A DNA stretch of 39,045 nucleotides from a virus (IMGVR_UViG_3300027842_000001:1-39045), one strand, 5' to 3'; numbered from the stretch's first letter, positions 13,184 through 37,894 are shown. The notes: generated by a model not told the origin, from the letters alone. Translations and numbers: made by a program.

Positions 13184-13726
13184 TCACGGCAGCAGATCCA
13201 GCGCCCACAACAGCGCGAGCCCGCCACCGACCAGCGCCCACACTGGCGGCGATGCGACCCCTGCGCCGCCGCCAGTGTCGGCCGTCAGCGTTTGGCCGCT
13301 ATTGCCGTCCCCCGCGTCAATGACCGCCGGGTTTTCCGCCAGCAGCGCGGCGTCGACGCGCCGGAACTCGTGCGGTAAGTCCAGCATCGGATGGACGCTC
13401 ACGCCCGTGGGGTACTTCGAGTCGATGGTGAGCGAATCACTGCCGAGCCAGATCGCCATGTGCGGGAACTCGACGCCTGGCTGCGCCGGGTCGCGGTAGC
13501 GGTAGAACACCAGGTCGCCGGCGACCGGGTTGTCGATCGCCACGGTTTGCGCGTACATCGCGTCGGTGAACGCCACCAGGCCGGGCACGCCGTTCTGTGC
13601 GTAGTCCCACGCGACGAAGCTCGAGCAGTCGAAACCAGGATCTCCGAAGCGCCCGCCGCCGACGTCGGAAAGTGGCCCGGAGTACGGCTTGCCAATCTGA
13701 GCGCGAGCCGTGTCGATCAGCCCCAC
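13184..13726 (-). CDS. NlpC/P60 cell-wall peptidase with C-terminal membrane anchor
   Basis: AQIGKPYS, GFDCSSFVAWDY (catalytic Cys), GDLVFY, HMAIWLG (His); C-terminal VWALVGGGLALLWALDLL. Confidence 0.85.
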   Translation of the reverse strand: MGLIDTARAQIGKPYSGPLSDVGGGRFGDPGFDCSSFVAWDYAQNGVPGLVAFTDAMYAQTVAIDNPVAGDLVFYRYRDPAQPGVEFPHMAIWLGSDSLTIDSKYPTGVSVHPMLDLPHEFRRVDAALLAENPAVIDAGDGNSGQTLTADTGGGAGVASPPVWALVGGGLALLWALDLLP

Positions 13727-18337: not shown

Positions 18338-19369
18338 GTGGCAGTACGAACAGTCCGAAGCGTCGCGGTAACCGACGTCTACAACTCGGGCGGCGGCATC
18401 GCTCACGAGCTCTCACCGCTGCCATTCGCAACCACGCGGATCGACTGGCAGATCGAGGCCAACCTCACCACCAGCGCCTCACCAGGCACGTCTCAGGATT
18501 GGCTCTGGCGGCTTATCAATGCGCTGTCGCTGAGCTCACCGCTCGGCAACCATCTCACCCTCGGCGACTTGCGCCCGCTGCACTTCGAAAACCGCCTGCG
18601 GTGGGGCGGCCAGTTCACCACCCCCGCGGCACCCGGCGCCTCGGCAACGGGCGTCGTGAAACACGCGATTTTGCGTTTCGATTGCGGCGTCAACCCGCTT
18701 GACCCGTGGGACCTCACCGGCGGCCTGCCGGCGCGGCTCGGCAATCTGTCGATGGCTGGCGGGTGGGCCGCGGCGACACAGCTCGGCTCGGGCTACACCG
18801 TCAACGCGGGCACGCTCCTGCGGACCAAGCTCTACGGCGTGCTGCCCGAGATGGACGGCGAGGCGATCCCGCGCGCCATTCCGGTGATGCAGACGTACCA
18901 GCCGCAACCCTCGAGCAACTCGGCGTCACTCGGCACGAGCTGGAACTTCCCGAAGGGCCATTTCCTGCACAGCATCGTCGTGATGCCGGCCGCGGGCGTG
19001 CGCCCCGCGGACAATCGCTCGGATACGGCGCTGCAAGACATTGGCATCGGCCTGCCCGTCGCGGGCAACCGCCAGCCGTACTACGACACGTGGTACTCGT
19101 TCAAGCAAGAGCAGCGCATCGTGTCGGTGGCGGAGGACGACGGCAACACCTTCGGCGTGCCGACGGTGGCGGCTGAGGGCGACGTCGGCGTAGGCATGCT
19201 GGCCGTCGCGCGACTGGCCGCGGGCGGAAATCCGCTCTACGGCATCGACGACCGCAACGCCGGCGAGGGCGACACGCAATTGCTCTTTGGCGTGAACAAC
19301 AACAGCCAGCTTTCGGTGTGGCTGCTCACACGCCACTACGACCTCAACCCCGCGGCAGGAGGCAGCTAA
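18338..19369 (+). CDS. Virion structural protein, candidate major capsid protein (343 aa)
   Basis: GTG 18338 after AAGGGGGG. Large, beta-rich-looking, low in charged runs; position at the head of the structural arm. Fold not determinable by eye. Confidence 0.55.
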   Translation: MAVRTVRSVAVTDVYNSGGGIAHELSPLPFATTRIDWQIEANLTTSASPGTSQDWLWRLINALSLSSPLGNHLTLGDLRPLHFENRLRWGGQFTTPAAPGASATGVVKHAILRFDCGVNPLDPWDLTGGLPARLGNLSMAGGWAAATQLGSGYTVNAGTLLRTKLYGVLPEMDGEAIPRAIPVMQTYQPQPSSNSASLGTSWNFPKGHFLHSIVVMPAAGVRPADNRSDTALQDIGIGLPVAGNRQPYYDTWYSFKQEQRIVSVAEDDGNTFGVPTVAAEGDVGVGMLAVARLAAGGNPLYGIDDRNAGEGDTQLLFGVNNNSQLSVWLLTRHYDLNPAAGGS

Positions 19370-21265: not shown

Positions 21266-21676
21266 ATGGCCAATCTCGACGTCGTCGACCGCATCGAAAA
21301 TGCCGACACCGGCACGCTCACGCTGGTGGTCAAAGACCGCGACAACGCCGAGGACCTCGGCGCGTACTACCACTACGCGGCCGTTCCACCAGCTCACGCA
21401 AACGTGAAACCCGACCAGTGGGCCGAACAGGTCGCCGCGCATGCGCTGGCGCTCGAGGCACGAGCTCGCGGCATCGAGCCACCCGCCCGCGCGCATCCCG
21501 AACCCGGCCAGCTCGGCGCCGCGCCCGCGGGCGAGCAGCTCGCCGACGAGGACCAGGCCGAGCTCGAGCAGCTCCGCGCGGCGCGTGCTTCGGCCGACCA
21601 GGTGGCGCGCGATCGCGCCGAGCTCGAGCAGCTCCGCGCCGAGCGCGCGGCGCACCAGGAGCAGCCGACGGCGTGA
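21266..21676 (+). CDS. Hypothetical protein (136 aa) with coiled-coil tail
   Basis: ATG 21266 with AGGAG 5 nt upstream; two AELEQLR repeats. Confidence 0.7.
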   Translation: MANLDVVDRIENADTGTLTLVVKDRDNAEDLGAYYHYAAVPPAHANVKPDQWAEQVAAHALALEARARGIEPPARAHPEPGQLGAAPAGEQLADEDQAELEQLRAARASADQVARDRAELEQLRAERAAHQEQPTA

Positions 21677-23475
21677 CGATGCTCGCGGGGCCGCAAGGTG
21701 GCGGGCCGCCACCGCCCGCGGCCAACACCGTAACGCTCGGGATCTTTCGCGCCGAGGACTACGGCGCGCACAGCATCCAGGCGGGCGCTACCGACGCCTC
21801 GGGAGGTATCAACATCGCGGCCAGCATCGCCGCGGCGCAGGGCGGCGGCCTGGTGATGCTCGACCCGGGCCTCACGTATCCGGTGCGGCGCACGGTGACG
21901 CTCCCCGCGAATGTCGAGCTCGCGATCCCGACGGGCACGGTGCTGCAAGCCGCGGCCGGCCTGGTGGGCGACGTCGTCACGGCGACCAATGCGGCGGGCG
22001 TCCGAATTTCGGGCGGCGGCACGATCGACGCCAACCGCGCCATAGGCACCACCGGCAACGGCGTCACGCTCACCGGCTGCACGGAGCCACAGGTCGAAGA
22101 GATCGCGATTATCAACGCCTGGCAGGATGACGTCGCGCTGGTCAACTGCGTTCGCCCGGTGCTCGACGTGTTTGTCGGCGCCTCGGGCCGCCACGGTCTG
22201 TATCACAGCGGGACCACGTTCGGCCGCGGCCAGGTCACCGCTCGAGACAACGGCCAGCGCATCGCGGGCCACGGCGTCGTGTTCGATGCCGCCTCGACTG
22301 ACAACTGCTACGGGCCGCTGGTGTCCACCGACTCGCGCGTCGGCGGCGCCAAAACGCAGCAATACGGCGTGTTCGAAGTACCCGCCTCCGGGTGCGATCG
22401 CAACACGTATGCACCGTCGGCGCTCGGCGGTAACGCCGTCGGCTCGCAATCGCTGGTGGGCGCGAGCTCGGGCCCGGTGGTGATTGCGCCGAACTCGATC
22501 AGCGCCGGCATGCTGGCCAACGGATCGGTAGGCGACGTCGCGATCGCCGCGGCGGGCCTGTCGAACTCGTCTCTAAACGCGACGGTCGCTCGAGCGAACC
22601 AGCTCATAAACGGCAATTTCCAGGTGTGGCAGCGCGGCACCGGCCCATTCAGCGCTAATGCCGCATACGGCCCCGACCGCTGGCAGATCGGGCTCGCTGG
22701 CAGCGACGCAATCACCGTTTCACGCGACACCACGCACGTTGACGTCGGAGCGACCTATGCGTGCCACGTGACATTCACGCTCGGCACGGGCGGCGGCGCG
22801 AGCGGCCTGTTCCAGTACCTCAAGGCGGGCGACGGCTACGCGCTGCCAGGCGAGCCATTCGCGGCGTCGCTGCGCGTGTATTGCGACACAGCCAACGCGG
22901 TACGCCTCTCGCTCACGTCGGACGGCACCGGCGGCGCGCCGGTGTATTCGGCGTTCAACAACGTCACGAACGGCTGGCAGACGCTCACGGTCGCCATTCC
23001 CGCGCTTCCCGCCAACGTGGGGCAACTGCAACTCTCGATCTACTTCGCGGCCTCGTGCAATGCGTGGTTCAACCATGCCTGCGTGGTGCAGGGCACCGTC
23101 GCCGCTAACGACGTGCCGCTGACACCCGCCGAGGACCTCGCGCGGTGTCTGCGCTATTACCAGCGCTTCGGCCCGAGCGCGCAGGTGTTTGCAGCAGGCC
23201 AGGCCTACAACACCAGCGGCGGCGCGATCCCGTTCCCACTCGTCGCGCCGATGGGCGGGAACCCCACGCTGACCGTATCGGCGCTCAGCGATGTCGGGTT
23301 GACCAATGCCGCGGGGAGTGGCGTCGCGTGTACCTCGCTCAGCATCGACGTGCCCCACAACTGGCACCCGCGCCTCAACGCCGGCCTCGGGAGCGCGCCG
23401 CTGGTGGCGGGCAACGCGACCCAACTCTGCTACATGTCGTCGAGCGTGTGGATCGCTTTCGAGTGGAATCCATGA
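21673..23475 (+). CDS. Receptor-binding protein: pectate-lyase-like beta-helix domain plus C-terminal fibre-type domain
   Basis: GTG 21673 overlaps the upstream TGA. N-terminal FRAEDYGA...GATDASGGINIAASIAAAQGGGLVMLDPG and Gly/Asn/Val rungs; C-terminal NGNFQVWQRGT...DRWQ motif, common in phage fibre tips. Confidence 0.8.
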   Translation: MTMLAGPQGGGPPPPAANTVTLGIFRAEDYGAHSIQAGATDASGGINIAASIAAAQGGGLVMLDPGLTYPVRRTVTLPANVELAIPTGTVLQAAAGLVGDVVTATNAAGVRISGGGTIDANRAIGTTGNGVTLTGCTEPQVEEIAIINAWQDDVALVNCVRPVLDVFVGASGRHGLYHSGTTFGRGQVTARDNGQRIAGHGVVFDAASTDNCYGPLVSTDSRVGGAKTQQYGVFEVPASGCDRNTYAPSALGGNAVGSQSLVGASSGPVVIAPNSISAGMLANGSVGDVAIAAAGLSNSSLNATVARANQLINGNFQVWQRGTGPFSANAAYGPDRWQIGLAGSDAITVSRDTTHVDVGATYACHVTFTLGTGGGASGLFQYLKAGDGYALPGEPFAASLRVYCDTANAVRLSLTSDGTGGAPVYSAFNNVTNGWQTLTVAIPALPANVGQLQLSIYFAASCNAWFNHACVVQGTVAANDVPLTPAEDLARCLRYYQRFGPSAQVFAAGQAYNTSGGAIPFPLVAPMGGNPTLTVSALSDVGLTNAAGSGVACTSLSIDVPHNWHPRLNAGLGSAPLVAGNATQLCYMSSSVWIAFEWNP

Positions 23476-23804: not shown

Positions 23805-24022
23805 GCTTTCAGGTCTGCTACGAAAACGACAACCGCGGCGTCGTCGCGTGGCAGTCGCCCGACTTCGGCGGCGCGGACATGGGCGCCGGCTACACCGTGG
23901 CCACGATCAACGACGACACGCTGTACGCCTGGCTCAACGCCAACGTCGGTTGGCCCCCCTACGCGGTGCTCAACGCCGACGGCCAGCACTTCACGCTCGC
24001 GCAGACGGTGGCCGGCTGGTGA
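23801..24022 (+). CDS. Hypothetical protein (73 aa)
   Basis: GTGA overlaps at both ends; balanced composition. Confidence 0.6.
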   Translation: MSFQVCYENDNRGVVAWQSPDFGGADMGAGYTVATINDDTLYAWLNANVGWPPYAVLNADGQHFTLAQTVAGW

Positions 24023-24594
24023 ACATTCAGGACGTCTACGACCAGGCCGCCAGCGTGGCACAGCAGAGCGGCGTCGATCCGTCGATCATCGCCACGATCG
24101 CCAGCACCGAATCGAACCTCGCGCTCGCCCCGCCGTTTACGCTCGGCATCACCACGCAGGCGAGCCGCGGCGGCGCGGGCAGCTCGGGCCAGACGCTCAG
24201 CTCGGGCTCGCCGTATGCCGGCACCAGCCAACCCGCGGCGTTTTGGGCCTACAACGACGGCGCCGAGGCGGCGATCGCTTTCGCGCAGTACATCGCGGCG
24301 TATCAGTCGGAGCTCGCGCCGCTGCTCAGCCAGGCCTCCGCGTTTTTCGATCCGTCGGGGCCAATCATCCACTCGAACTACTACGTCCCAACACCAGGCG
24401 GGACCTCGGCGGCCGATTACTACGGCCATTGGCAAGCCGTCGCGGCCTCTCTCGGGGGCGGGGGAGTGGCGATCGCGACGCAACCGCTCGGCTCGACGCG
24501 GGCAGGCCTGCCAACGTTCCTCGAAAACTGGCCGGTGCCGGTCCTGGTCGGCCTCGCCGCGGTGCTCACGTTATGGGCCTTGGGGGAGCTCTAA
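24019..24594 (+). CDS. Lytic transglycosylase (SLT-like) with C-terminal membrane anchor
   Basis: IASTESN (catalytic Glu-Ser), LGITTQ, FWAYNDGAEAA (AYNxG) in canonical order; C-terminal VPVLVGLAAVLTLWALG. Confidence 0.75.
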   Translation: MNIQDVYDQAASVAQQSGVDPSIIATIASTESNLALAPPFTLGITTQASRGGAGSSGQTLSSGSPYAGTSQPAAFWAYNDGAEAAIAFAQYIAAYQSELAPLLSQASAFFDPSGPIIHSNYYVPTPGGTSAADYYGHWQAVAASLGGGGVAIATQPLGSTRAGLPTFLENWPVPVLVGLAAVLTLWALGEL

Positions 24595-24677: not shown

Positions 24678-24695
24678 TGTGCAGACGTCTGCACA
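24678..24695. repeat. 18-bp palindrome, copy 3
   Basis: Exact; in the intergenic gap 24595-24747. Confidence 0.95.
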
Positions 24696-24747
24696 ACTCG
24701 CCGCGGCGCTCGAGGCGTGAGCGGCGCCGATCGAGGGAGATGGCGCG

Positions 24748-25854
24748 GTGCAGGTAGACGGCCTCGGCGAGCGACCGCTGATTGACTCCGGCGGCTTCCC
24801 GGTGGTGTGGATCGGCGCGGCCGGCTGCACGATCGGCCAGGACCCGAGCCAGGGCGGGACGAATTGCTACGGCCCGGGTGACGTGCTGACGGACGCCGAC
24901 ACCGGCGCGCAGTATCAGATCGGCTCGGACTGGCACGTGCGCCAGCTCGGCGCGGGCGATTCCACCAGCTCGCCACCCGCGGACGCGGCGCCAACCCTGA
25001 GCGATCGGCTGTACTACGTCGATTCGGGCGAGATCATCGAGAAAGACACGTACAGCGACGGATCGGTGACCTACAGCGACACCGGCATGAGCTCGCCGCT
25101 GTCGGACGGCACGGCCTCGGGCAACCCCGCGGACTTGCAGCGCACGAGCTCGTCGACGGGCTCGCCTGACGGGAGCGGCTTTCAGGCCACGAACCCGGGC
25201 GGTGGCTACGGGCCGTATGCGACACCGGATCCGCCGCAGCTCACCGACATGGGCACCTATGTCCAGAATGGCGAGCTCTTCGACCACCAGGTCGACCAGT
25301 ACGGAAACGATTACTACTCAGACCTTGGGCCGGCGCCGCCCGGCAGCGCGCCGTCGCCGCCGATCGCGCAGCACCCCGCGCCAAGTGTGCCCACGCCTCG
25401 AGGCGGCGCAAGCGTTGGAGCCGGTACGGCACCGATCGCCACCACGCCCGCGCCTGGCACCGCTGGCGCGCCCGAACCGACGGCGGCCGATGGACAGCGC
25501 CTCTCAGGTCAGAACGCCGTTACCCAAGCGGCCTACCGCGGACTGTACGGCGCCAATGCCGCCAACGTGTGGGTAGCGCAACATAATGCCGCGATCGGAC
25601 AATCCGCCTCGACCCCACCGTCCGGCGGCGCCCCGAGGCCGAGCGGGGCGCCAACGGCGATCGCTCCGCGCGTGGGCAGCCGCTCGACGACTGGCGGCCC
25701 GGTGACGGTGCCGGGGGACCCGCAGCAGTGGGCGAAGCAACTCATTACGTGGCTGTCGGCGCCGTCCTCGATTGGCCACATGCCGAACGGCGTCCTCGTC
25801 CTCGGCAGTGTCGTCGGCTACTCGATGCTCAAGCGTAGGGGCATGTTCCGGTGA
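24748..25854 (+). CDS. Membrane-anchored virion protein, paralog family member A
   Basis: N-terminal GGFPVVW...QDPSQGGTNCYGPGD domain; EPTAADGQRLS module; C-terminal GPVTVPGDPQQWAKQLITWLSAPSSIGHMPN plus TM. Confidence 0.7.
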   Translation: MQVDGLGERPLIDSGGFPVVWIGAAGCTIGQDPSQGGTNCYGPGDVLTDADTGAQYQIGSDWHVRQLGAGDSTSSPPADAAPTLSDRLYYVDSGEIIEKDTYSDGSVTYSDTGMSSPLSDGTASGNPADLQRTSSSTGSPDGSGFQATNPGGGYGPYATPDPPQLTDMGTYVQNGELFDHQVDQYGNDYYSDLGPAPPGSAPSPPIAQHPAPSVPTPRGGASVGAGTAPIATTPAPGTAGAPEPTAADGQRLSGQNAVTQAAYRGLYGANAANVWVAQHNAAIGQSASTPPSGGAPRPSGAPTAIAPRVGSRSTTGGPVTVPGDPQQWAKQLITWLSAPSSIGHMPNGVLVLGSVVGYSMLKRRGMFR

Positions 25855-26897
25855 CCATCACCAGCGCGCCGAGCTCCGTCCCCGCGGGCAGCTCGTTTAG
25901 CGTGAGCTACTCGTTCCGCCACCCGAAAACGGGCGGTGTTGTCGGCATCACGCCACCAGGTCGCAACGTGTACTCCGTCGCGCCGCTCAGCGAGCAGATG
26001 GCATCGGCCGGTTTCCTCACGACGCAGCCCATGAGCGGCGCATCGGGCACGGTTACCCTGGTCGCGCCGAGCACACCGGGCGACTACAGCCTGCAAACGT
26101 TCTACGGCCCCGACGGCGGCACCGAAGATATCCAGTCGCTCCAGGTCACCGCCGCGGCTGCGGCTGCACCCCCGCCGCCGAGCTCGAGCAGCTCGACGGC
26201 GACGAGCGCTCCGGCCAGCTCGAGTACGCCGAGCAGCTCGAGCACGCTCAACCCGTGGGCCAACGCGCCAGCCGGTGTCTACGTGCCACCCTCGCCCGAA
26301 CCCGCGGCCAGCGACGGCGCGCGACTGTCGGCGCAGGGGACCGACGTGCAGGCCTACTACGTGGCCAACGCGGGGCCCGGCATGCTCGCCGCGACGCAAT
26401 TCGTCATCGACCACGAGCACCAGCTCGCCGCGATCGGCGCGAGCCAGCACCCGACGACGACGTACACCCCGCCACCGACCGAACCGGCCGCCAGCGACGG
26501 CGAGAAACTGTCGATGCAATCGCCCGACGTGCAGGCCTACTACGTCCAGAAATACGGGCCTGGCTTCCTGGCCGCAACGGGCTTTGTGAACGAGCGTAAT
26601 GCTTCGCTCGGCACGTCAATCCCGGGCGGCGCCTCGACGGTCCTCCCGCTCCCCGCGGGGCCTGGTGCGGGTGGCGCTGACACGGGCCTATTCACGGGCG
26701 GCGCGGGCGGTGGCGATTTCTCGAGCACCAGCACCACCACGCCGCCGGTGCCGACGACGTCGGCCGCGGGCGGCCTCCCGCCATCGTTCGGCAACCTGGT
26801 GCACCAGGTCGAGGCAAACCCGCCGCTGCTTATCGGGCTCGGCATCGGACTGTATTTCTTGCTCGGCGGCCAACTCCCCGGCAGCCATCGGAGGTAA
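25851..26897 (+). CDS. Membrane-anchored Ser/Pro-rich protein with two EPAASDG modules
   Basis: GTGA overlap; tandem modules of about 45 aa; C-terminal LLIGLGIGLYFLLGG. Confidence 0.7.
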   Translation: MTITSAPSSVPAGSSFSVSYSFRHPKTGGVVGITPPGRNVYSVAPLSEQMASAGFLTTQPMSGASGTVTLVAPSTPGDYSLQTFYGPDGGTEDIQSLQVTAAAAAAPPPPSSSSSTATSAPASSSTPSSSSTLNPWANAPAGVYVPPSPEPAASDGARLSAQGTDVQAYYVANAGPGMLAATQFVIDHEHQLAAIGASQHPTTTYTPPPTEPAASDGEKLSMQSPDVQAYYVQKYGPGFLAATGFVNERNASLGTSIPGGASTVLPLPAGPGAGGADTGLFTGGAGGGDFSSTSTTTPPVPTTSAAGGLPPSFGNLVHQVEANPPLLIGLGIGLYFLLGGQLPGSHRR

Positions 26898-26903
26898 TCG
26901 CGC

Positions 26904-27680
26904 GTGCCACTTATGCCGCTCAATCAGCAGCTCACCGACCTCGGCGGCGTCCCCGTGTTGTGGGATAGCGACCTCGGCACACTGGTGCAGGACCCTACGC
27001 AGGGCGGCACCAATCGGTACGGGCCCGGCGATCTCTTCCGCGACCCCTCGAGCGGCGACGTCTACCAGCTCGGCTCGGACGGCTCGCTCTCGCTGTACCG
27101 CATCGGCGCGCCGCCGAGCGTGCCAGTACCGGCGAGCACGACCGTGAGCGTGAGCTCGGCGGGCAAGAGCTGGACGAGCTCGCCGACGACGAGCGGCCCG
27201 GTGACCGTTGCTGGCGACCCGCAGACCTGGTCGAAGCAGCTCATTTCGTGGTTATCGGCGCAATCCTCGATTGGGCACATGCCGAACTGGTCGCTCGTCG
27301 CGCTCGCCGCGGCTGCCTACACGCTCGTCAAGCGCCGGCGACGGAATCCGCGGCCGATCCTCCGCAACCCGAGCGGTGGGGCGCGCGTGGTCTATAACCG
27401 ACTGCTCGGCGGGTGGTACGTCGTCGTCGGGCGGCACCAAACGCCGATTAGTGGGCGCTTCGATTCGAAGGCGGAGGCCGAGGCCTGGCTCAGAGGGCGC
27501 CGTCGCAACCCTGGCAAGGCGAAGCGCGCGGCGCGTCGGCGTGCGCACGAGTACGTCTCCGAGCTGGTGCGCCTCGAGCGCGGCGTCCGTCAAAGCATGG
27601 GCCCGGCTACGGCCGCACTCCGCAGACGTCGGGGCCGCAGGTTTTCCGAGCGCGTGGTGATGCGGTCATACGGGTACTGA
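26904..27680 (+). CDS. Paralog family member B with TM segment and Arg-rich RRNP tail
   Basis: GGVPVLW...QDPTQGGTNRYGPGD; GPVTVAGDPQTWSKQLISWLSAQSSIGHMPN; KRRRRNP, RGRRRNP. Confidence 0.7.
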   Translation: MPLMPLNQQLTDLGGVPVLWDSDLGTLVQDPTQGGTNRYGPGDLFRDPSSGDVYQLGSDGSLSLYRIGAPPSVPVPASTTVSVSSAGKSWTSSPTTSGPVTVAGDPQTWSKQLISWLSAQSSIGHMPNWSLVALAAAAYTLVKRRRRNPRPILRNPSGGARVVYNRLLGGWYVVVGRHQTPISGRFDSKAEAEAWLRGRRRNPGKAKRAARRRAHEYVSELVRLERGVRQSMGPATAALRRRRGRRFSERVVMRSYGY

Positions 27681-27683
27681 GGG

Positions 27684-28208
27684 ATGGCGCGAGGCGGTGT
27701 CGATCCGATCGTGCGCTACCTGGTGCTCGGCGGCCTCGGCTATGCCGGCTGGTCTTGGGCCAGCGCGCAACCCGCCGACTCGTGGGCGCGCCAGATGATC
27801 GACCAGGCGCGCGGCTTCCTGAAACACCCGACGTTGCCGGGCAGCAGCTCGTCGACGTCGTCGAGCTCGTCGACGACGCCCGCCGCGCCAAGCGCCCCCG
27901 CCATGCTGCCCGGGCATTGGTACGGACCAGGCGGCAAGGAAGTACCCGCCCCGGCGCCGATCCCCACCGACCAGCCGATGCAGCCGACCTCGCTCGTCGA
28001 CGTCGGCGGCTTCCCGATTGTCATGGACCCGAACCAGGACGCGCTCCGCCAGGATCCGGCACAGGGCGGCACGAACGTGTACGGGCCCGGCGACGTCCTG
28101 GTCGACTCCAACACGCAAGCGCAGTACGTGATTGTCGCGGGCCGCGGCGGCGTCATTTTGCAGGGCCCGGACGGCGCCTACGTCGCTTCGGATGATTTCT
28201 TCGTATGA
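27684..28208 (+). CDS. Paralog family member C (N-terminal TM, C-terminal GGFP domain)
   Basis: VRYLVLGGLGYAGWSWA; GGFPIVM...QDPAQGGTNVYGPGD. Confidence 0.7.
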   Translation: MARGGVDPIVRYLVLGGLGYAGWSWASAQPADSWARQMIDQARGFLKHPTLPGSSSSTSSSSSTTPAAPSAPAMLPGHWYGPGGKEVPAPAPIPTDQPMQPTSLVDVGGFPIVMDPNQDALRQDPAQGGTNVYGPGDVLVDSNTQAQYVIVAGRGGVILQGPDGAYVASDDFFV

Positions 28209-28468
28209 CCGACCAGCAACTCGGCAGCGCGAACTACACGCCTGGCACGGGCGATTTCTCGGGTGACGATCTCAGCGCCGCCGGCGCACAGCTCCAATCG
28301 GGCGACACGGCCAAACTGGCGCTTACGTTCCCGCTGCCGATTAGCGGCATCCCCGCCGACGGCATCGCCGCGGTGCTAAGCCCGATCTTCGGCCTCTTCG
28401 GCCAGACGTTGCTCGGCGTCGACTTTGACGGTGACTCAACCCTGGTGCTGGTGTGGAGGGTCGGCTAA
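28205..28468 (+). CDS. Hypothetical protein (87 aa)
   Basis: ATGA overlap; track ORF. Confidence 0.6.
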   Translation: MTDQQLGSANYTPGTGDFSGDDLSAAGAQLQSGDTAKLALTFPLPISGIPADGIAAVLSPIFGLFGQTLLGVDFDGDSTLVLVWRVG

Positions 28469-28783
28469 ATGCCTGCGTTGCTGGCGCTCATTCCGGAGAT
28501 CATCGACGCGCTGGCGGCGTTCATCGGCGCGACCTGGTGGCAACTGCCGGTGCTGGTAACGCTCTTCAAAGTCGGCGCGCAAGTGACGGAGCCGATTCCG
28601 CAGCCAGCCGGCCAACAATCGCCGGTGCAACAGGCCGCCAGCGGCGCCGCACAGGCCGCCTCGGGCGTCGGCTCCGCGGTCGGTGGAACGGCTCAGGCGG
28701 TCGGCGGCTTCGGCCAGTTTCTCTCACAAAATCCCTGGCTGGTGGTCGGCGGCATCGTCGCCATATTCGTACTTCGGAGGTAA
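28469..28783 (+). CDS. Membrane protein (104 aa, two TM segments)
   Basis: ATG directly after the upstream TAA; hydrophobic N- and C-terminal segments. Confidence 0.65.
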   Translation: MPALLALIPEIIDALAAFIGATWWQLPVLVTLFKVGAQVTEPIPQPAGQQSPVQQAASGAAQAASGVGSAVGGTAQAVGGFGQFLSQNPWLVVGGIVAIFVLRR

Positions 28784-28786
28784 CGG

Positions 28787-28803
28787 TTTGAATGGCTATT
28801 AGC
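28787..28803 (+). repeat. AT-rich 17-mer TTTGAATGGCTATTAGC
   Basis: Read directly; contains ATG 28792. Confidence 0.85.
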
Positions 28804-29025
28804 GCTGCGCCCGCGCTCGAGCCGCTCCGACCGAAGGGGCTCGAGCTGACACACGTGTCGATCGTTCCCGAGCAGGGCGGCACCGGCCGTTTTTTGGTGA
28901 ATCGTCACTTTGTTGTGCGCGAGGCCGAAAGTAAGTACCCGCTCCAGGAGTCATGGGAGGGCCGCGGCTTCGGCGAGGCGCTCGAGCTGGTCCAGAAAAT
29001 CATGGCGATGGAGGGTCTGCGGTGA
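28792..29025 (+). CDS. Hypothetical protein (77 aa)
   Basis: ATG lies inside AT-rich 17-mer copy 28787-28803. Confidence 0.6.
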   Translation: MAISAAPALEPLRPKGLELTHVSIVPEQGGTGRFLVNRHFVVREAESKYPLQESWEGRGFGEALELVQKIMAMEGLR

Positions 29026-29240
29026 GCTCGTTGCCTCCGCCGGCCATGCCGCCAGGGCTATCCGCGGCGGACTACGCCGCAGCGCAGCAGCGAAATCAGG
29101 TGATGCTCGCGGGCGTGCTCGGCGGTGGTGCATTCATCGGCTACGAGCTGCTCGGCGGCATGCAGGGGGCGCTCATTGGCGCGGCTGGCGCGTACATCGG
29201 TCTAAAGCTGCTCGGCGATGCGATGTGGGGCAACGGCTGA
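29022..29240 (+). CDS. Gly-rich membrane protein (72 aa)
   Basis: GTG 29022 overlaps the upstream TGA; VMLAGVLGGGAFIGYELLGG... Confidence 0.55.
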   Translation: MSSLPPPAMPPGLSAADYAAAQQRNQVMLAGVLGGGAFIGYELLGGMQGALIGAAGAYIGLKLLGDAMWGNG

Positions 29241-29244
29241 ACTT

Positions 29245-30228
29245 GTGGGCCTGTTCGACTTCCTGCGGCCGAAGCGTCGACGACGGCGCCGAGCTGTGCA
29301 GACGTCTGCACAACGGCCGCGCTATCGACCTGGTGAACGCGCCAAGCGCTACCTCGAGCGGGTGGCCGAGCTCGAGGACCTCGAGCAGCGGCGACGTGCC
29401 CAAAAACGCACTACGCGGCCCGCTGGACCACGCGCCACACGCGACGACGATCCGACGGTCGAGATTCCGAAGAGCGTCCAGCGCGAAGCCGAGCGCCGAT
29501 TTCAGGCACGCCAGCGGGCCGAGCGCGAGGCGGCCGAGAAACGGCGCCGCCAGGAGATCCGCGAGCGCGAGCGGGCCGCGCGCGGTGAGGCGCGCATGAT
29601 GGCCAGGGCCGAGAAGGCGCGAGCTCGCGCGATCGACGCCTACATGGCGAACGGCGCCACCCGCGCCGAGGCCGAGCAGCTCTACGACCGCGAGCCGGAT
29701 TGGTCAACCTACGACTTCAACCCGCGGCGCCGCGGTGTACGGCATCGCAGCTGGCCACGTCGCCGTACAAACCCGCTGCCGCCCGTGGTGGGCGAGATCG
29801 CTAAGGACGTGCTGAAAGGTGGCCTAATCGCCGCGGCACAGGAAGAGGCCAAAGCCCGATGGCGCGCAGCTCGACGACGTCGCAATCCGGCGCGCCTCGA
29901 GCCGAACCACCCGGACGAAAAACTGCGGGACATGAGCCGTCGGTTTCACGGCCGACCCGATCAAATCCTGCACCTTGACGCGGACCAGCGCCGCCCGCCG
30001 CCGCAGCACGTCGTACTGATCGGCCACGAGCGGGCGACGGTCTATCGCACGCCGCGGAGCTCCGAGCGCTCAGGCGCCGATTGGGAGCACGAGGCGGGCG
30101 ATCGCGGCATGTTGCGGCGCAACGCCAGCGGGCGCCGGATCCTGGTCGCCGACGAGCGCGGCCGGGTGTATCTGCTACAGGGCAGCTCGTCGATGCGATT
30201 CGACCCCGACCAGGGGCTCGTCGGGTGA
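29245..30228 (+). CDS. Arg-rich RRNP-motif protein
   Basis: GTG 29245; palindrome 29295-29312 sits at codons 17-23. An alternative start near GTG 29361 would make the palindrome intergenic. Confidence 0.6.
   Translation: MGLFDFLRPKRRRRRRAVQTSAQRPRYRPGERAKRYLERVAELEDLEQRRRAQKRTTRPAGPRATRDDDPTVEIPKSVQREAERRFQARQRAEREAAEKRRRQEIRERERAARGEARMMARAEKARARAIDAYMANGATRAEAEQLYDREPDWSTYDFNPRRRGVRHRSWPRRRTNPLPPVVGEIAKDVLKGGLIAAAQEEAKARWRAARRRRNPARLEPNHPDEKLRDMSRRFHGRPDQILHLDADQRRPPPQHVVLIGHERATVYRTPRSSERSGADWEHEAGDRGMLRRNASGRRILVADERGRVYLLQGSSSMRFDPDQGLVG
29295..29312. repeat. 18-bp palindrome, copy 4
   Basis: Exact; 55 bp after the stop at 29240; read as VQTSAQ if the gene starts at 29245. Confidence 0.95.
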
Positions 30229-31756: not shown

Positions 31757-32119
31757 ATGTACCACGGTTTGACGATCGGCGCGTTTTTGGGGCTCTTGTG
31801 TGGCTTGTCCCCAATGCGACAAGTGAGGCGCAACCCCGACACCGCGACCGTGCTCCTGGTCGGCCTCGGCCTGCTGCTGCTGCTCCGATCGCGCGGCGCC
31901 CGACTGTTCGGCGCCTCGAGCAGCCCGGCGCCGCTCTTACCGCCGAGCTACTCAGGCTGGCCGAGTGTATTCCCGCAGATGGCCACCGAAGGCGCCGCGT
32001 GCACGACCAGCAACGGCCAGCCGGGTACGTGGCATCGCGTCGAGTTTGGCGCGGTGCAGGTTGGCGGCATTCCGCAGCAATGGATTTGCTGGCCGCGGGG
32101 GGTCCCGATCACCGTATGA
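31757..32119 (+). CDS. Membrane protein (120 aa)
   Basis: Two hydrophobic segments separated by RQVRRNP. Confidence 0.55.
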   Translation: MYHGLTIGAFLGLLCGLSPMRQVRRNPDTATVLLVGLGLLLLLRSRGARLFGASSSPAPLLPPSYSGWPSVFPQMATEGAACTTSNGQPGTWHRVEFGAVQVGGIPQQWICWPRGVPITV

Positions 32120-33081
32120 CCGACCCGGTGCGGCTGCTCGAGCTCGGCGCCGACATGCTGCGCTCGCGGCGCGGCGACCAGGACGCCCGCGGGCGACTGA
32201 TGCGCAACGCGCTACCGCTGGCGGCCGATTATCTGATACGCCCCGGCGCAGGGCGGCTACTCGAGCGCGGCCTCGAGACATTGCGCGACGTCGCCGCGGA
32301 GGAAGGCTGGCGGCTGCCGGGTGGGCTCGCGACCATCGGCGAGGGCGACCCGCTGCCGAATTACGAGCCGTTCGTCGAGCGCCTGGTCGCCGCCCCGTTC
32401 GGCTTCTACACGATCATGGGCGAGCCAGGCACGGGTAAAACCGTGCTCGCGTTGCGGCTGGCGCAGCGCATCGCCGAAGAGCACGGCTACCAGGTTGTCT
32501 CAGTCGGCGGCATGCACCCCGACGACCGGCGCAAGTGGAAAACCGACGAGTGGATCCAGCTCGAGGCGCCCGGCGCGTTCGTCAAAGCGATGGACGCCGT
32601 AGCCGAAACGATGGTGACCGCGCGTGTCCACCGCCACCGCCGCGAGCTCACCGGGCGGGTGATTCTGCTCGACGACGCGATTATGACCGCGCACATTTCC
32701 GCCAAACGTTTCAACCAGTCGCTTACACAGGCCTGGTCGATCTATCGGCATCTCGATTGGGTGGTGCTGCTCACTGCGCGCATGTTCCGCGCGCTAACGA
32801 CCATTGCCGAGAACGCCGACGCGCGATTCTTGAAACGGCCCGACTGGCAGCAACTCTCGAGCGAGCGCGACAAAGCGCGCTTTTGGTGGCGCGACGCCGA
32901 GGCAGCCTACAAGGGGCTGCGCCACTCTGCCGACTGGCAGACCCGCCCACGTGAGCGGGAATGGATCTACGTCCAGGCGCCCGGGCTGCGCTACACGGGC
33001 CTGATGCCGTACAGCACGCCGGAGCCACCGACGACGACGCTCGTCCTCGATCCCGTGCCACCCGATCGGGAGACGCTATGA
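32116..33081 (+). CDS. P-loop ATPase, candidate genome-packaging ATPase (FtsK/HerA-like or Zot-like)
   Basis: ATGA overlap. Walker A MGEPGTGKT, Walker B RVILLDDA. Flanked by small membrane proteins. Confidence 0.75.
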   Translation: MTDPVRLLELGADMLRSRRGDQDARGRLMRNALPLAADYLIRPGAGRLLERGLETLRDVAAEEGWRLPGGLATIGEGDPLPNYEPFVERLVAAPFGFYTIMGEPGTGKTVLALRLAQRIAEEHGYQVVSVGGMHPDDRRKWKTDEWIQLEAPGAFVKAMDAVAETMVTARVHRHRRELTGRVILLDDAIMTAHISAKRFNQSLTQAWSIYRHLDWVVLLTARMFRALTTIAENADARFLKRPDWQQLSSERDKARFWWRDAEAAYKGLRHSADWQTRPREREWIYVQAPGLRYTGLMPYSTPEPPTTTLVLDPVPPDRETL

Positions 33082-37144: not shown

Positions 37145-37894
37145 CTAGCCCCCGGCGACGATCGGCGCGAGCAGCGGCGCGTAAGCCGGTCTGAGTAGCG
37201 CCGAGTGATTGGTCCATGCGTCCGACGGGTCCGTCGCCGTGAACACGTAAGGCGTATCGCCAGGGATCTCCTGCTGCACCGGCTGTAGGGCGATATCGAC
37301 CGTGTTGACGACCACCCGCACGTCGACGCCGAGGCCGCGCTCCCACGCCTCGAGCTGGCCAAGATAATCAGACCAGCCCGGCGCGGTGCTGCGGTCGAAA
37401 AGGTCGCTCGCCGCGGGACAGGCGCCGCGCGTGAATGCGTAGCTCAGCAATTCCGTACCGCTGACCCCCTCGAGCGGCGCGTCGATGGGGACCACGCGCT
37501 CGACGAAGCCGGCCAGGTCGGGCGCCGCGGCCAATGCAAACAGGGCGACAACGCCACCGTTCGAGTGGCCGACCAGGATCACGCGGTCGACCTGGTGCTG
37601 CGCGCGGAGCTGCTCGAGGTACATCGCCAGCGCCGCGACCGACTGGCCGAGCGGCTGGCACGAGCCCGCGGCGCCATAGTCAAAGGCGCTGAAATTCGAA
37701 ATGCCACGCGCGCCGAGCTGGTCGGACAGCGGCGTAAAGGCGGCCTGCGTCGAGGCCGCGGTCGAGCCGAGGCCGCCCACGAAAACGACCATTTCGGAAG
37801 GTGCGGCCGCCGCGGGTTGTGCAGACGTCTGCACAAACAGGGCGAGCGCGAGTGTGAGGCCTGCTGGCCAGCTGCGGAACCGTACAAAGCGCAT
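37145..37894 (-). CDS. Secreted alpha/beta-hydrolase (lipase/esterase-like)
   Basis: Signal peptide MRFVRFRSWPAGLTLALALFVQTSAQP; nucleophile elbow VILVGHSNGG (GxSxG); ATG 37894. Confidence 0.8.
   Translation of the reverse strand: MRFVRFRSWPAGLTLALALFVQTSAQPAAAAPSEMVVFVGGLGSTAASTQAAFTPLSDQLGARGISNFSAFDYGAAGSCQPLGQSVAALAMYLEQLRAQHQVDRVILVGHSNGGVVALFALAAAPDLAGFVERVVPIDAPLEGVSGTELLSYAFTRGACPAASDLFDRSTAPGWSDYLGQLEAWERGLGVDVRVVVNTVDIALQPVQQEIPGDTPYVFTATDPSDAWTNHSALLRPAYAPLLAPIVAGG
37818..37835. repeat. 18-bp palindrome, copy 6 (20 bp with flanking T/A)
   Basis: Exact; encodes the VQTSAQ c-region of the hydrolase signal peptide. Confidence 0.95.

Follow-up and report, generated by a model that had tools for sequence, protein, structure and literature searches.

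A new all-beta module shared by putative membrane-anchored proteins of an uncultured soil phage with a predicted double jelly-roll capsid

Introduction

Why would a virus carry the same short domain in three of four adjacent genes, at the N-terminus of two products and at the C-terminus of the third? This question is raised by positions 24748-28208 of IMGVR_UViG_3300027842_000001:1-39045, a complete virus record that is 39,045 bp long, ends in direct terminal repeats, and contains approximately 70% G+C; the whole of this stretch is referred to below as the window. The four genes are called A, B, C, and D, and the domain common to A, C, and D is called the GGFP/QDP module. A first-pass annotation had noticed the three copies and suggested a modular family of virion-surface, membrane-fusion, or adsorption proteins. 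We find that the module is a new domain, lying outside every curated family and fold set compared, and by analogy with known phages we propose, with moderate confidence, that A-D are co-expressed anchored proteins of an internal virion membrane, acting in envelope penetration and genome delivery or in the tethering of the membrane to the capsid. The results that come directly from the comparisons are presented before the proposal: the paralogy and the absence of known relatives, the confidence of the module fold, the fold of the capsid protein, the conserved cassette, and the pattern of evolution. The cassette has the following organization.

24748..25854, plus strand: gene A, 368 residues, with an N-terminal GGFP/QDP module, a YYVDSG hairpin module, an A/B-type module, and Pro/Ser/Thr/Ala linkers
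24778..24933, plus strand: GGFP/QDP module of A (residues 11-62), including the Cys27/Cys40 pair
25468..25623, plus strand: A/B-shared module in A (residues 241-292), DGxxLSxQ..., found by BLASTP against B
25696..25833, plus strand: pre-anchor and anchor block of A (residues 317-362), apparently evolving in concert with the block of C
25851..26897, plus strand: gene B, 348 residues, with an N-terminal beta-rich region, two A/B modules, a strong predicted C-terminal transmembrane (TM) helix, and an HRR end
26292-26450 and 26475-26630, plus strand: the two copies of the A/B module in B
26904..27680, plus strand: gene C, 258 residues, with an N-terminal GGFP/QDP module, a linker, the pre-anchor block, an anchor, RRRR, and a basic tail
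26931..27086, plus strand: GGFP/QDP module of C (residues 10-61), found by BLASTP
27195..27332, plus strand: pre-anchor and anchor block of C (residues 98-143), apparently evolving in concert with the block of A
27684..28208, plus strand: gene D, 174 residues, with an anchor helix (residues 8-27), an amphipathic helix, a disordered Ser/Thr/Pro linker, and a C-terminal module
27981..28205, plus strand: GGFP/QDP module of D, a folded domain (residues 100-174) of seven short strands in the AlphaFold2 model

The GGFP/QDP Module

Composition-adjusted BLASTP aligns the modules of A and C with 57% identity over 51 residues (E 3e-14), those of A and D with 58% identity over 48 residues (E 6e-14), and those of C and D with 50% identity over 46 residues (E 1e-11). 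The common core is approximately 50 residues long, and 20 columns are invariant across six copies, three from the window and three from its sister phage. The shared segment of about 60 residues that had been read by eye is thus real, and the three peptides quoted for it sit in the genes starting at 24748, 26904, and 27684, with the module at the N-terminus of A and C and at the C-terminus of D.

In the AlphaFold2 model of D, built from a 43-row alignment, a first helix (residues 8-27) and a second helix (34-47) are followed by a disordered linker and a compact all-beta domain of 75 residues with seven short strands (100-174); the predicted local distance difference test (pLDDT) is 93-98 over residues 100-150. 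Low-complexity bias, which had been named as a possible refutation of the similarity, is ruled out by the composition-adjusted E-values of at most 1e-11, by specific profile matches, and by pLDDT above 90.

None of the resources compared recognizes the module. Pfam assigns no family to A-D at E<=0.1 and none to any of the 43 family members at E<=0.01; PHROGs and NCBIfam contain no match to the module, and a PDB sequence-profile search with it returned nothing. Foldseek with the module model finds nothing at E<=0.001 in either PDB or BFVD: the best PDB match is the NHL propeller 3fvz (E 0.14, TM score 0.2), the best BFVD match has E 0.15, and local SH3/KOW-like pieces of 37-47 residues appear at E>1. 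The earlier view that the domain cannot be assigned to a known family is upheld by these searches, as a match to a characterized family, which would have spoken against it, is absent from them.

A profile of the six copies was compared with 1.84 billion cluster representatives (cut-off E<=0.001) and gave 54 matches, about 40 of which are small proteins of 86-270 residues with a single module. Two layouts occur in the family. In one, the module comes first, at the very N-terminus, and then a linker, a short hydrophobic segment, and a terminal RRRR; in the other, a basic N-terminus is followed by a hydrophobic helix with a W-x-W-A-x-x-Q-P boundary, a linker, and a C-terminal module. The use of both ends seen in the window is therefore common to the wider family, and the profile search and structure prediction recommended by the first-pass annotation have yielded some 40 small metagenomic relatives and a confident all-beta domain. 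The few long matches are beta-propeller or adhesin-like repeat proteins, in which the hairpin of the second half alone is matched.

Membership in the beta-propellers (NHL, lactonase, SBBP) was considered and rejected, since the matches are to a generic hairpin at profile positions ~42-67. The second half of the module, YGPGDV-x-D-x-x-G-x-x-Y, does score against the repeats of these proteins, but their blades stand in tandem in a ring, whereas each protein here has a single module, of which approximately 25 residues match and whose first half, D-x-GG-x-P...QDP, is without counterpart. Kinship with the other small modules was not upheld either (hhalign E 0.4 for the YYVDSG module and 0.09 for the HDDG module); these two are weakly similar to each other (E 6e-4, probability 29%). 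B shares a second, different module with A (BLASTP E 6e-5 and 2e-4), whose interpretation as a PG_binding_1-like helical domain is unsupported by Pfam or the PDB profile search.

Start and stop codons in the cassette overlap, as do the start of B and the stop of A, or lie 3-6 nt apart. The C-terminal end of A consists of the pre-anchor block, a short anchor, and a KRR tail, and its linkers are long; the stored Atlas models of A and B have pLDDT 0.48, in keeping with mostly disordered linkers. The anchor helix of D has the conserved W-x-W-A-x-x-Q-P boundary.

Virus Type and Relatives

Genes were called with a codon-usage model trained on long confident open reading frames (ORFs). From ~17.7 to 35.3 kb every gene is on the plus strand and start codons often overlap with stop codons, and the A-D cassette stands inside this structural block, directly 3' of a tail-anchored lysozyme-like gene. 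The left half and the far right end encode a tyrosine integrase, a DnaC/IstB-like ATPase, an N6/N4 methylase, an NlpC/P60 protein, a large serine recombinase, and an alpha/beta hydrolase. Neither Pfam nor PHROGs reveals a terminase, a portal, or an HK97-type capsid protein among the window proteins. Two genes of the structural block bear on the type of the virion.

18338..19369, plus strand: predicted double jelly-roll capsid protein (structure model, Foldseek)
32116..33081, plus strand: P-loop ATPase, candidate packaging ATPase, 321 residues

The idea of a capsid fold for 18338-19369 came from an Atlas lead and was tested by a structure model and a 12-sequence alignment. The model (predicted template modeling score, pTM, 0.82) matches the major capsid protein of Sulfolobus turreted icosahedral virus (STIV) in PDB with E 1.6e-14 and TMq 0.70, and many P3 chains of PRD1 and PR772 with E ~1e-13 and TMq 0.60-0.67. 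It also matches the capsid proteins of Paramecium bursaria chlorella virus 1 (PBCV-1), iridovirus, and PM2, with 127 PDB matches at E<=0.001 in all. Judged by this model, the product is a double jelly-roll capsid protein of the PRD1/STIV lineage. Characterized bacterial and archaeal viruses with a double jelly-roll capsid have a lipid membrane beneath the shell (reviewed in PMC6356626), and the capsid fold therefore suggests that the window phage probably has an internal lipid membrane as well. Besides A-D, six further genes of the structural arm have TM segments by hydropathy, and this count of predicted membrane proteins matches a membrane-containing type of virion. The candidate packaging ATPase has generic AAA/P-loop matches, none of them specific to the FtsK/HerA type.

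In Tectiviridae sensu stricto the genome is linear, ends in inverted terminal repeats, and encodes a protein-primed family B DNA polymerase (PolB). The window phage is not a strict tectivirus, because its genome has direct terminal repeats and two recombinases and contains no PolB-length ORF: the only window ORF long enough is that of the 600-residue beta-helix gene (longest frame 685 residues). The replication genes identified in the window are the DnaC/IstB-like ATPase and the methylase. For the PRD1/STIV lineage, a genome of 39 kb is unusually large, and its equipment, with direct terminal repeats, a tyrosine integrase, and a large serine recombinase, is unusual too.

The window sequence occurs in a soil metagenome of 2017, which is probably its source, in soil runs from 2020, and in a mine metagenome of 2024; the mine sample contains near-identical pieces and a second strain. 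Mis-assembly across the repeats is excluded, as independent soil-run contigs span both repeated anchor blocks with zero differences. Apparent joints at 24696-25140 and 24959-27852, one of which involves an 18-bp palindrome near 24678, rest on 22-letter sides of single metagenome contigs and are most probably noise from repeats or from other organisms.

When 5.8 billion proteins were searched by word index, D proved to have one homolog, encoded on a 39,176-bp contig, and C a handful. The relatives compared were a syntenic sister phage (L004), three shorter contigs (L006, L008, and L009), and a more distant genome (L012). The order lysozyme-like gene-A-B-C-D is kept in the first four as far as the contigs reach, and the L012 cassette is reduced to an SLT gene, a 131-residue gene, one module-anchor gene, and one anchor-module gene. 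Between the window and the sister phage, A-D are 40-54% identical; the corresponding values of the capsid protein and the ATPase are 87% and 80%. The A product of L006 has no GGFP/QDP module and has two YYVDSG-type hairpin modules, and the D product of L008 likewise has two HDDG-type modules and no GGFP/QDP module. Neither the module nor the capsid protein has relatives in 185,579 species genomes or in IMG/VR besides the window's own record, and among 50,697 GenBank phage records tblastn found no match to A, D, or the capsid protein. The family is so far confined to an uncultured clade of soil double jelly-roll phages.

Evolution of the Module and of the Anchor Block

The C-terminal blocks of A and C are 67% identical over 51 residues (BLASTP, E 3e-19), and 81 of 104 aligned bases are identical between 25695-25800 and 27196-27300 (78%), close to the 80 percent that had been estimated by eye. 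The 46-residue pre-anchor and anchor block was compared between the A and C copies of four genomes. In each of them the best DNA match of a block is its partner in the same genome, with 72-76% identity within genomes and at most 72% between; third positions are 61-72% identical within genomes and mostly 33-59% between, the exception being the A genes of L004 and L006 (67%). The tree of the block pairs A with C by genome in all four cases (support of the window pair 100/99), and the approximately unbiased (AU) test rejects an A-only clade, that is, orthology, with a log-likelihood difference of 48.6 (p=0.0013).

The module tells a different story. In its tree orthologous copies stand together (96/99 for the C clade), and clades made up of one genome's A and C (p=0.0014) or of its A, C, and D (p=7e-7) are rejected by the AU test, so that the module was triplicated before the known relatives diverged. 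The notion of a domain shuffled between termini is therefore correct as regards its use at either end and incorrect as regards movement of the module itself, which forms three old and stable orthologous lineages; what comes and goes in the cassette are the other small modules, along with occasional losses of a module. Judged from these alignments, the anchors of A and C evolve in concert, the old duplication of the module aside.

Where two copies have the same residue, they also use the same codon in 68% of cases within genomes and in 53% between them, and this excess within genomes favors homogenization at the DNA level, that is, gene conversion, over pure co-evolution of the proteins. Conversion between the two blocks had been raised as a possibility by the first reading, and the incongruence of the anchor and module trees backs it. 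Most simply, the pre-anchor and anchor segments of A and C would have been repeatedly homogenized in each genome by conversion between direct repeats ~1.5 kb apart. As in other tandem paralogs evolving in concert, these repeats of one operon are closer within a genome, also at silent sites, and the rest of the two genes follows orthology; unlike in such systems, the tract is short (~140-165 nt) and already 22-28% diverged. The homogenization is therefore regarded as intermittent, and four genomes do not separate conversion cleanly from co-evolution.

The alternative is that the similarity of the anchors reflects protein-level co-evolution, with helices packing on each other or on one partner. 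Correlated selection can yield grouping by genome, the blocks contain no long identical DNA tract, and the A genes of L004 and L006 equal or exceed the within-genome values (21 of 29 codons, in addition to the third positions given above). Nevertheless, within-genome DNA identity is the highest in four genomes out of four, and the two copies in the window use the same codon at 21 of 27 identical residues, compared with 28-50% in their comparisons with all other copies, and agree at 65% of third positions, compared with 33-52%, a codon pattern that selection on the protein would not give. We therefore consider co-evolution without conversion doubtful. Gene conversion being preferred, the concerted change still suggests that a match between the two anchors, or of both with one docking partner, has to be maintained; A and C could thus dock together, or onto one partner, via their matched anchors.

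Neighboring Genes and Additional Features

Several genes outside the cassette are relevant for its interpretation.

24019..24594, plus strand: tail-anchored gene, 191 residues, with a weak SLT motif
21673-23475: beta-helix protein, 600 residues, pectate-lyase-like, a better receptor-binding candidate
28205..29240, plus strand: run of small genes (87, 104, 77, and 64 residues) directly downstream of D
13184-13726: NlpC/P60 protein, a candidate lysis enzyme away from the cassette
37145-37792: alpha/beta hydrolase, a candidate lysis enzyme away from the cassette

In L006 and L012 the gene in the position of 24019-24594 clearly encodes an SLT lytic transglycosylase with a hydrophobic tail anchor (E 2e-15 for L006 and 2e-17 for L012), and the product of 24019-24594 shares the anchor ending LWA(L/I)GEL with the L006 gene (E 3e-4). 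An outright SLT label for the window gene was downgraded after direct tests. Compared with the L006 and L012 enzymes, its lysozyme-like domain appears replaced or diverged beyond recognition, the C-terminal anchor being retained; the sister phage has a short SLT_3-like gene at this position.

The first ~40% of the beta-helix protein are common to the window and the sister phage (77% identity), whereas the C-terminal part is different, and its counterparts in the relatives (L004:4426-5712, L006:5256-5870, and L012:4811-6145) are shorter or split. On sequence grounds, this pattern would be typical of a swapped receptor-binding head. Among the small genes downstream of D, the 87-residue and 104-residue products have predicted TM helices.

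The basic tail of C is 115 residues long and carries a phrog_13335-like domain (E 0.0012), which is also found in proteins from unrelated contigs; it lies at 27370-27500 (residues ~156-200) and reads GGARVVYNRLLGGWYVV...SKAEAEAWL. Three of four orthologs of C stop directly past the anchor, and the sister phage carries a different basic tail; the domain is a lineage-specific gain, on the presumed cytoplasmic or capsid-facing side. Arg/Lys-Asn-Pro ("RNP") motifs recur in very basic segments, namely in the C tail at 27333-27677 (RRRRNP, LRNP, and RRRNP), in a 288-residue protein at 29362-30228 (RRTNP and RRRRNP), and in L004:9257-9997, as well as in the unrelated phage proteins that have the extra domain of C (P0013-P0015). 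The motif may serve in processing or in the binding of nucleic acids or lipids. Residues 1-110 of B (25851-26180) and of its orthologs have the look of a beta-sandwich, with weak Atlas leads to CARDB/PPC-like domains (TM score 0.25-0.45); in L004 and L009 this part contains an inserted Cys-bracketed loop.

Proposed Role of the Cassette

In the proposed model, A, C, and D, together with B, would be co-expressed membrane proteins of a PRD1/STIV-type phage, each with a single anchor, placed in the internal membrane beside the tail-anchored lysozyme-like enzyme encoded just upstream. Each module would be held on a flexible Pro/Ser/Thr linker, before the C-terminal anchor in A and C and after the N-terminal anchor in D. 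The paralogous modules could bind one another, forming a hetero-oligomeric head, or bind a common target, be it the capsid underside, the cell wall, or the host membrane, and the complex would serve host-envelope penetration and genome delivery or would tie the membrane to the capsid. The location in the virion, the formation of a complex, and the part in delivery are read here from context. In a more specific version, which is speculative and in our view rather improbable, the modules of A, C, and D might make up a pseudo-threefold hetero-trimeric head on flexible stalks above the internal membrane, with co-varying A and C anchors, at the tip or collar of a membrane nanotube or as a membrane-to-vertex adaptor. 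If this were true, the window would represent an unrecognized lineage of large (39-kb) temperate double jelly-roll soil phages and a new, structurally tractable way for lipid-containing phages to cross the cell wall.

Cysteines are rare (0.26%), and in all six cassette proteins that contain them they form pairs 13-33 residues apart; such pairs occur in orthologs of A, B, and D, one of them within the module of A in the window. This suggests disulfide-stapled loops and contact with an oxidizing compartment, be it the free particle or the space outside the cytoplasm. As regards the C-termini, a cytoplasmic position is favored by the RRRR ends and by the basic tail of C. Cleavage of a signal peptide in D was considered and rejected: the A-x-A of the window is not conserved (ARA, AKA, and AER in relatives), and an uncleaved anchor is therefore more likely.

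Several points weigh against the proposed role. The hydrophobic stretch past the A/C block, described initially as a TM helix, is indeed present and yet is no textbook TM helix, being short and Gly-rich with a Kyte-Doolittle (KD) value of ~1.4-1.5 over 15 residues. The segments of A, C, and D in general are of this weakly hydrophobic kind (KD 1.1-1.7 over 15 residues), whereas that of B is strong (KD 2.1-2.5); in the AlphaFold2 model of D, residues 8-27 are helical. The three weak anchors may be interfacial or protein-protein helices, perhaps not spanning the bilayer. A, B, and C have no signal peptides despite their large N-terminal regions, and the topology can be read in two ways: the positive-inside rule, applied to RRRR past the anchor, would place the N-terminal regions outside the cytoplasm, and a tail-anchor reading would place them inside. 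The internal membrane itself is a probable one, derived from the capsid fold, and the upstream gene of the window resembles SLT weakly (Pfam E 0.18). A fixed three-module complex is not obligatory, because the A product of L006 and the D product of L008 have each lost the module. As regards the matched anchors, the pair comparisons are not independent, the synonymous signal is modest, and the window pair has no identical run longer than 12 nt. Finally, A-D show no sequence or fold likeness to the membrane proteins of PRD1, Bam35, or other tectiviruses (Pfam, PHROGs, and Foldseek).

Three other roles were weighed. Like PRD1 P10 and other assembly proteins, A-D could be non-structural factors that mark a patch of the host membrane and recruit the capsid protein to it; they would then stay behind and not be packaged. 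The genome context would be the same as for virion proteins, soluble N-terminal parts without signal peptides suit a cytoplasm-facing role, and co-expression with the structural genes is tight. We nevertheless regard this role as unlikely: the paired cysteines suggest an oxidizing environment, a scaffold-like factor should evolve in step with the conserved capsid protein and not diverge twice as fast, and the adjacency to a tail-anchored SLT gene, whose product is a virion enzyme in tectiviruses (PMC6950372), points to entry.

A role in lysis or egress, with A-D as anchored partners of the lysozyme-like enzyme that bind the wall or link it to the membrane by a holin-, spanin-, or LysM-like logic, would agree with the position of the cassette directly downstream of a muralytic-type gene, with the anchor-plus-ectodomain design, and with the retention of one N-anchored and one C-anchored partner in the minimal L012 cassette. 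However, A-D contain no lipobox and no coiled coils and show no likeness to holin or spanin families (Pfam, PHROGs), the PDB sequence-profile search revealed no cell-wall-binding domain, and the cassette lies amid the capsid, spike, and ATPase genes, with the other candidate lysis enzymes encoded elsewhere, all of which makes this role quite improbable.

Display outside the particle, close to the adsorption or fusion role suggested at first, with the module as a receptor- or glycan-binding head, would fit the fast evolution of A-D, the conserved polar and Gly/Pro-rich loop motifs that could form a ligand site, and the weak local resemblance between propeller hairpins, some of them from adhesin-like proteins, and the module's second half, but it has little to recommend it, since the anchored proteins of double jelly-roll phages lie beneath the capsid shell, where a PRD1-type virion would place A-D too, the propeller matches span a generic hairpin of ~25 residues only, and the beta-helix protein with its variable counterparts is the obvious receptor-binding protein.

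Comparison with Known Systems

The closest analogy for the proposed internal-membrane role is PRD1, where single-pass membrane proteins are candidate scaffolds of the delivery tube and P16 links the vertices to the membrane; P7/P14, P11, P18, P32, and P16 are mostly single-pass and have no relatives outside their own phage group (PMC3782422). The window has in common with PRD1 small, putatively membrane-anchored proteins in a double jelly-roll phage with a probable internal membrane, encoded in the structural block beside a tail-anchored gene that is a true SLT transglycosylase in L006 and L012 and weakly SLT-like in the window. Unlike those of PRD1, A-D are larger and have long disordered linkers, and three of them have one folded module in common, a paralogy that we did not find described for PRD1; the genome differs in its direct terminal repeats, its two recombinases, and the lack of a PolB-length ORF. 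As the position and design of A-D resemble the delivery and vertex set of PRD1 and homology was not detected, we class them as proteins that would work like this set and not as its members.

A second parallel is provided by the actinobacterial tectiviruses, that is, the Streptomyces phages WheeHeim and Forthebois and the Rhodococcus phage Toil. In the Streptomyces phages, genes for a "membrane protein" and a "membrane DNA delivery protein" directly follow the virion transglycosylase gene (PMC6950372), and the window has a like order, the lysozyme-like gene and then the putative membrane proteins, within the capsid/ATPase segment; the soil origin and the temperate lifestyle are also common to both (PMC6950372). 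Unlike these phages, the window has a genome twice as long (39 kb versus 18 kb), and its A, D, and capsid proteins have no tblastn match in GenBank phages.

The conversion of the membrane into a delivery device in internal-membrane phages is understood in outline, and for PRD1 alone; the cassette would add a second, independent set of candidate delivery parts. The handles that it offers are a confidently folded 75-residue domain, genomes in which copies have been gained, lost, or re-anchored, and matched anchors that predict contacts. Further, approximately 40 orphan metagenomic protein clusters now form one family tied to double jelly-roll soil phages, and the family label helps to annotate non-tailed phages missed by current pipelines. 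Set beside PRD1 and the tectiviruses, the kind of protein found here is already known, and the domain family is new.

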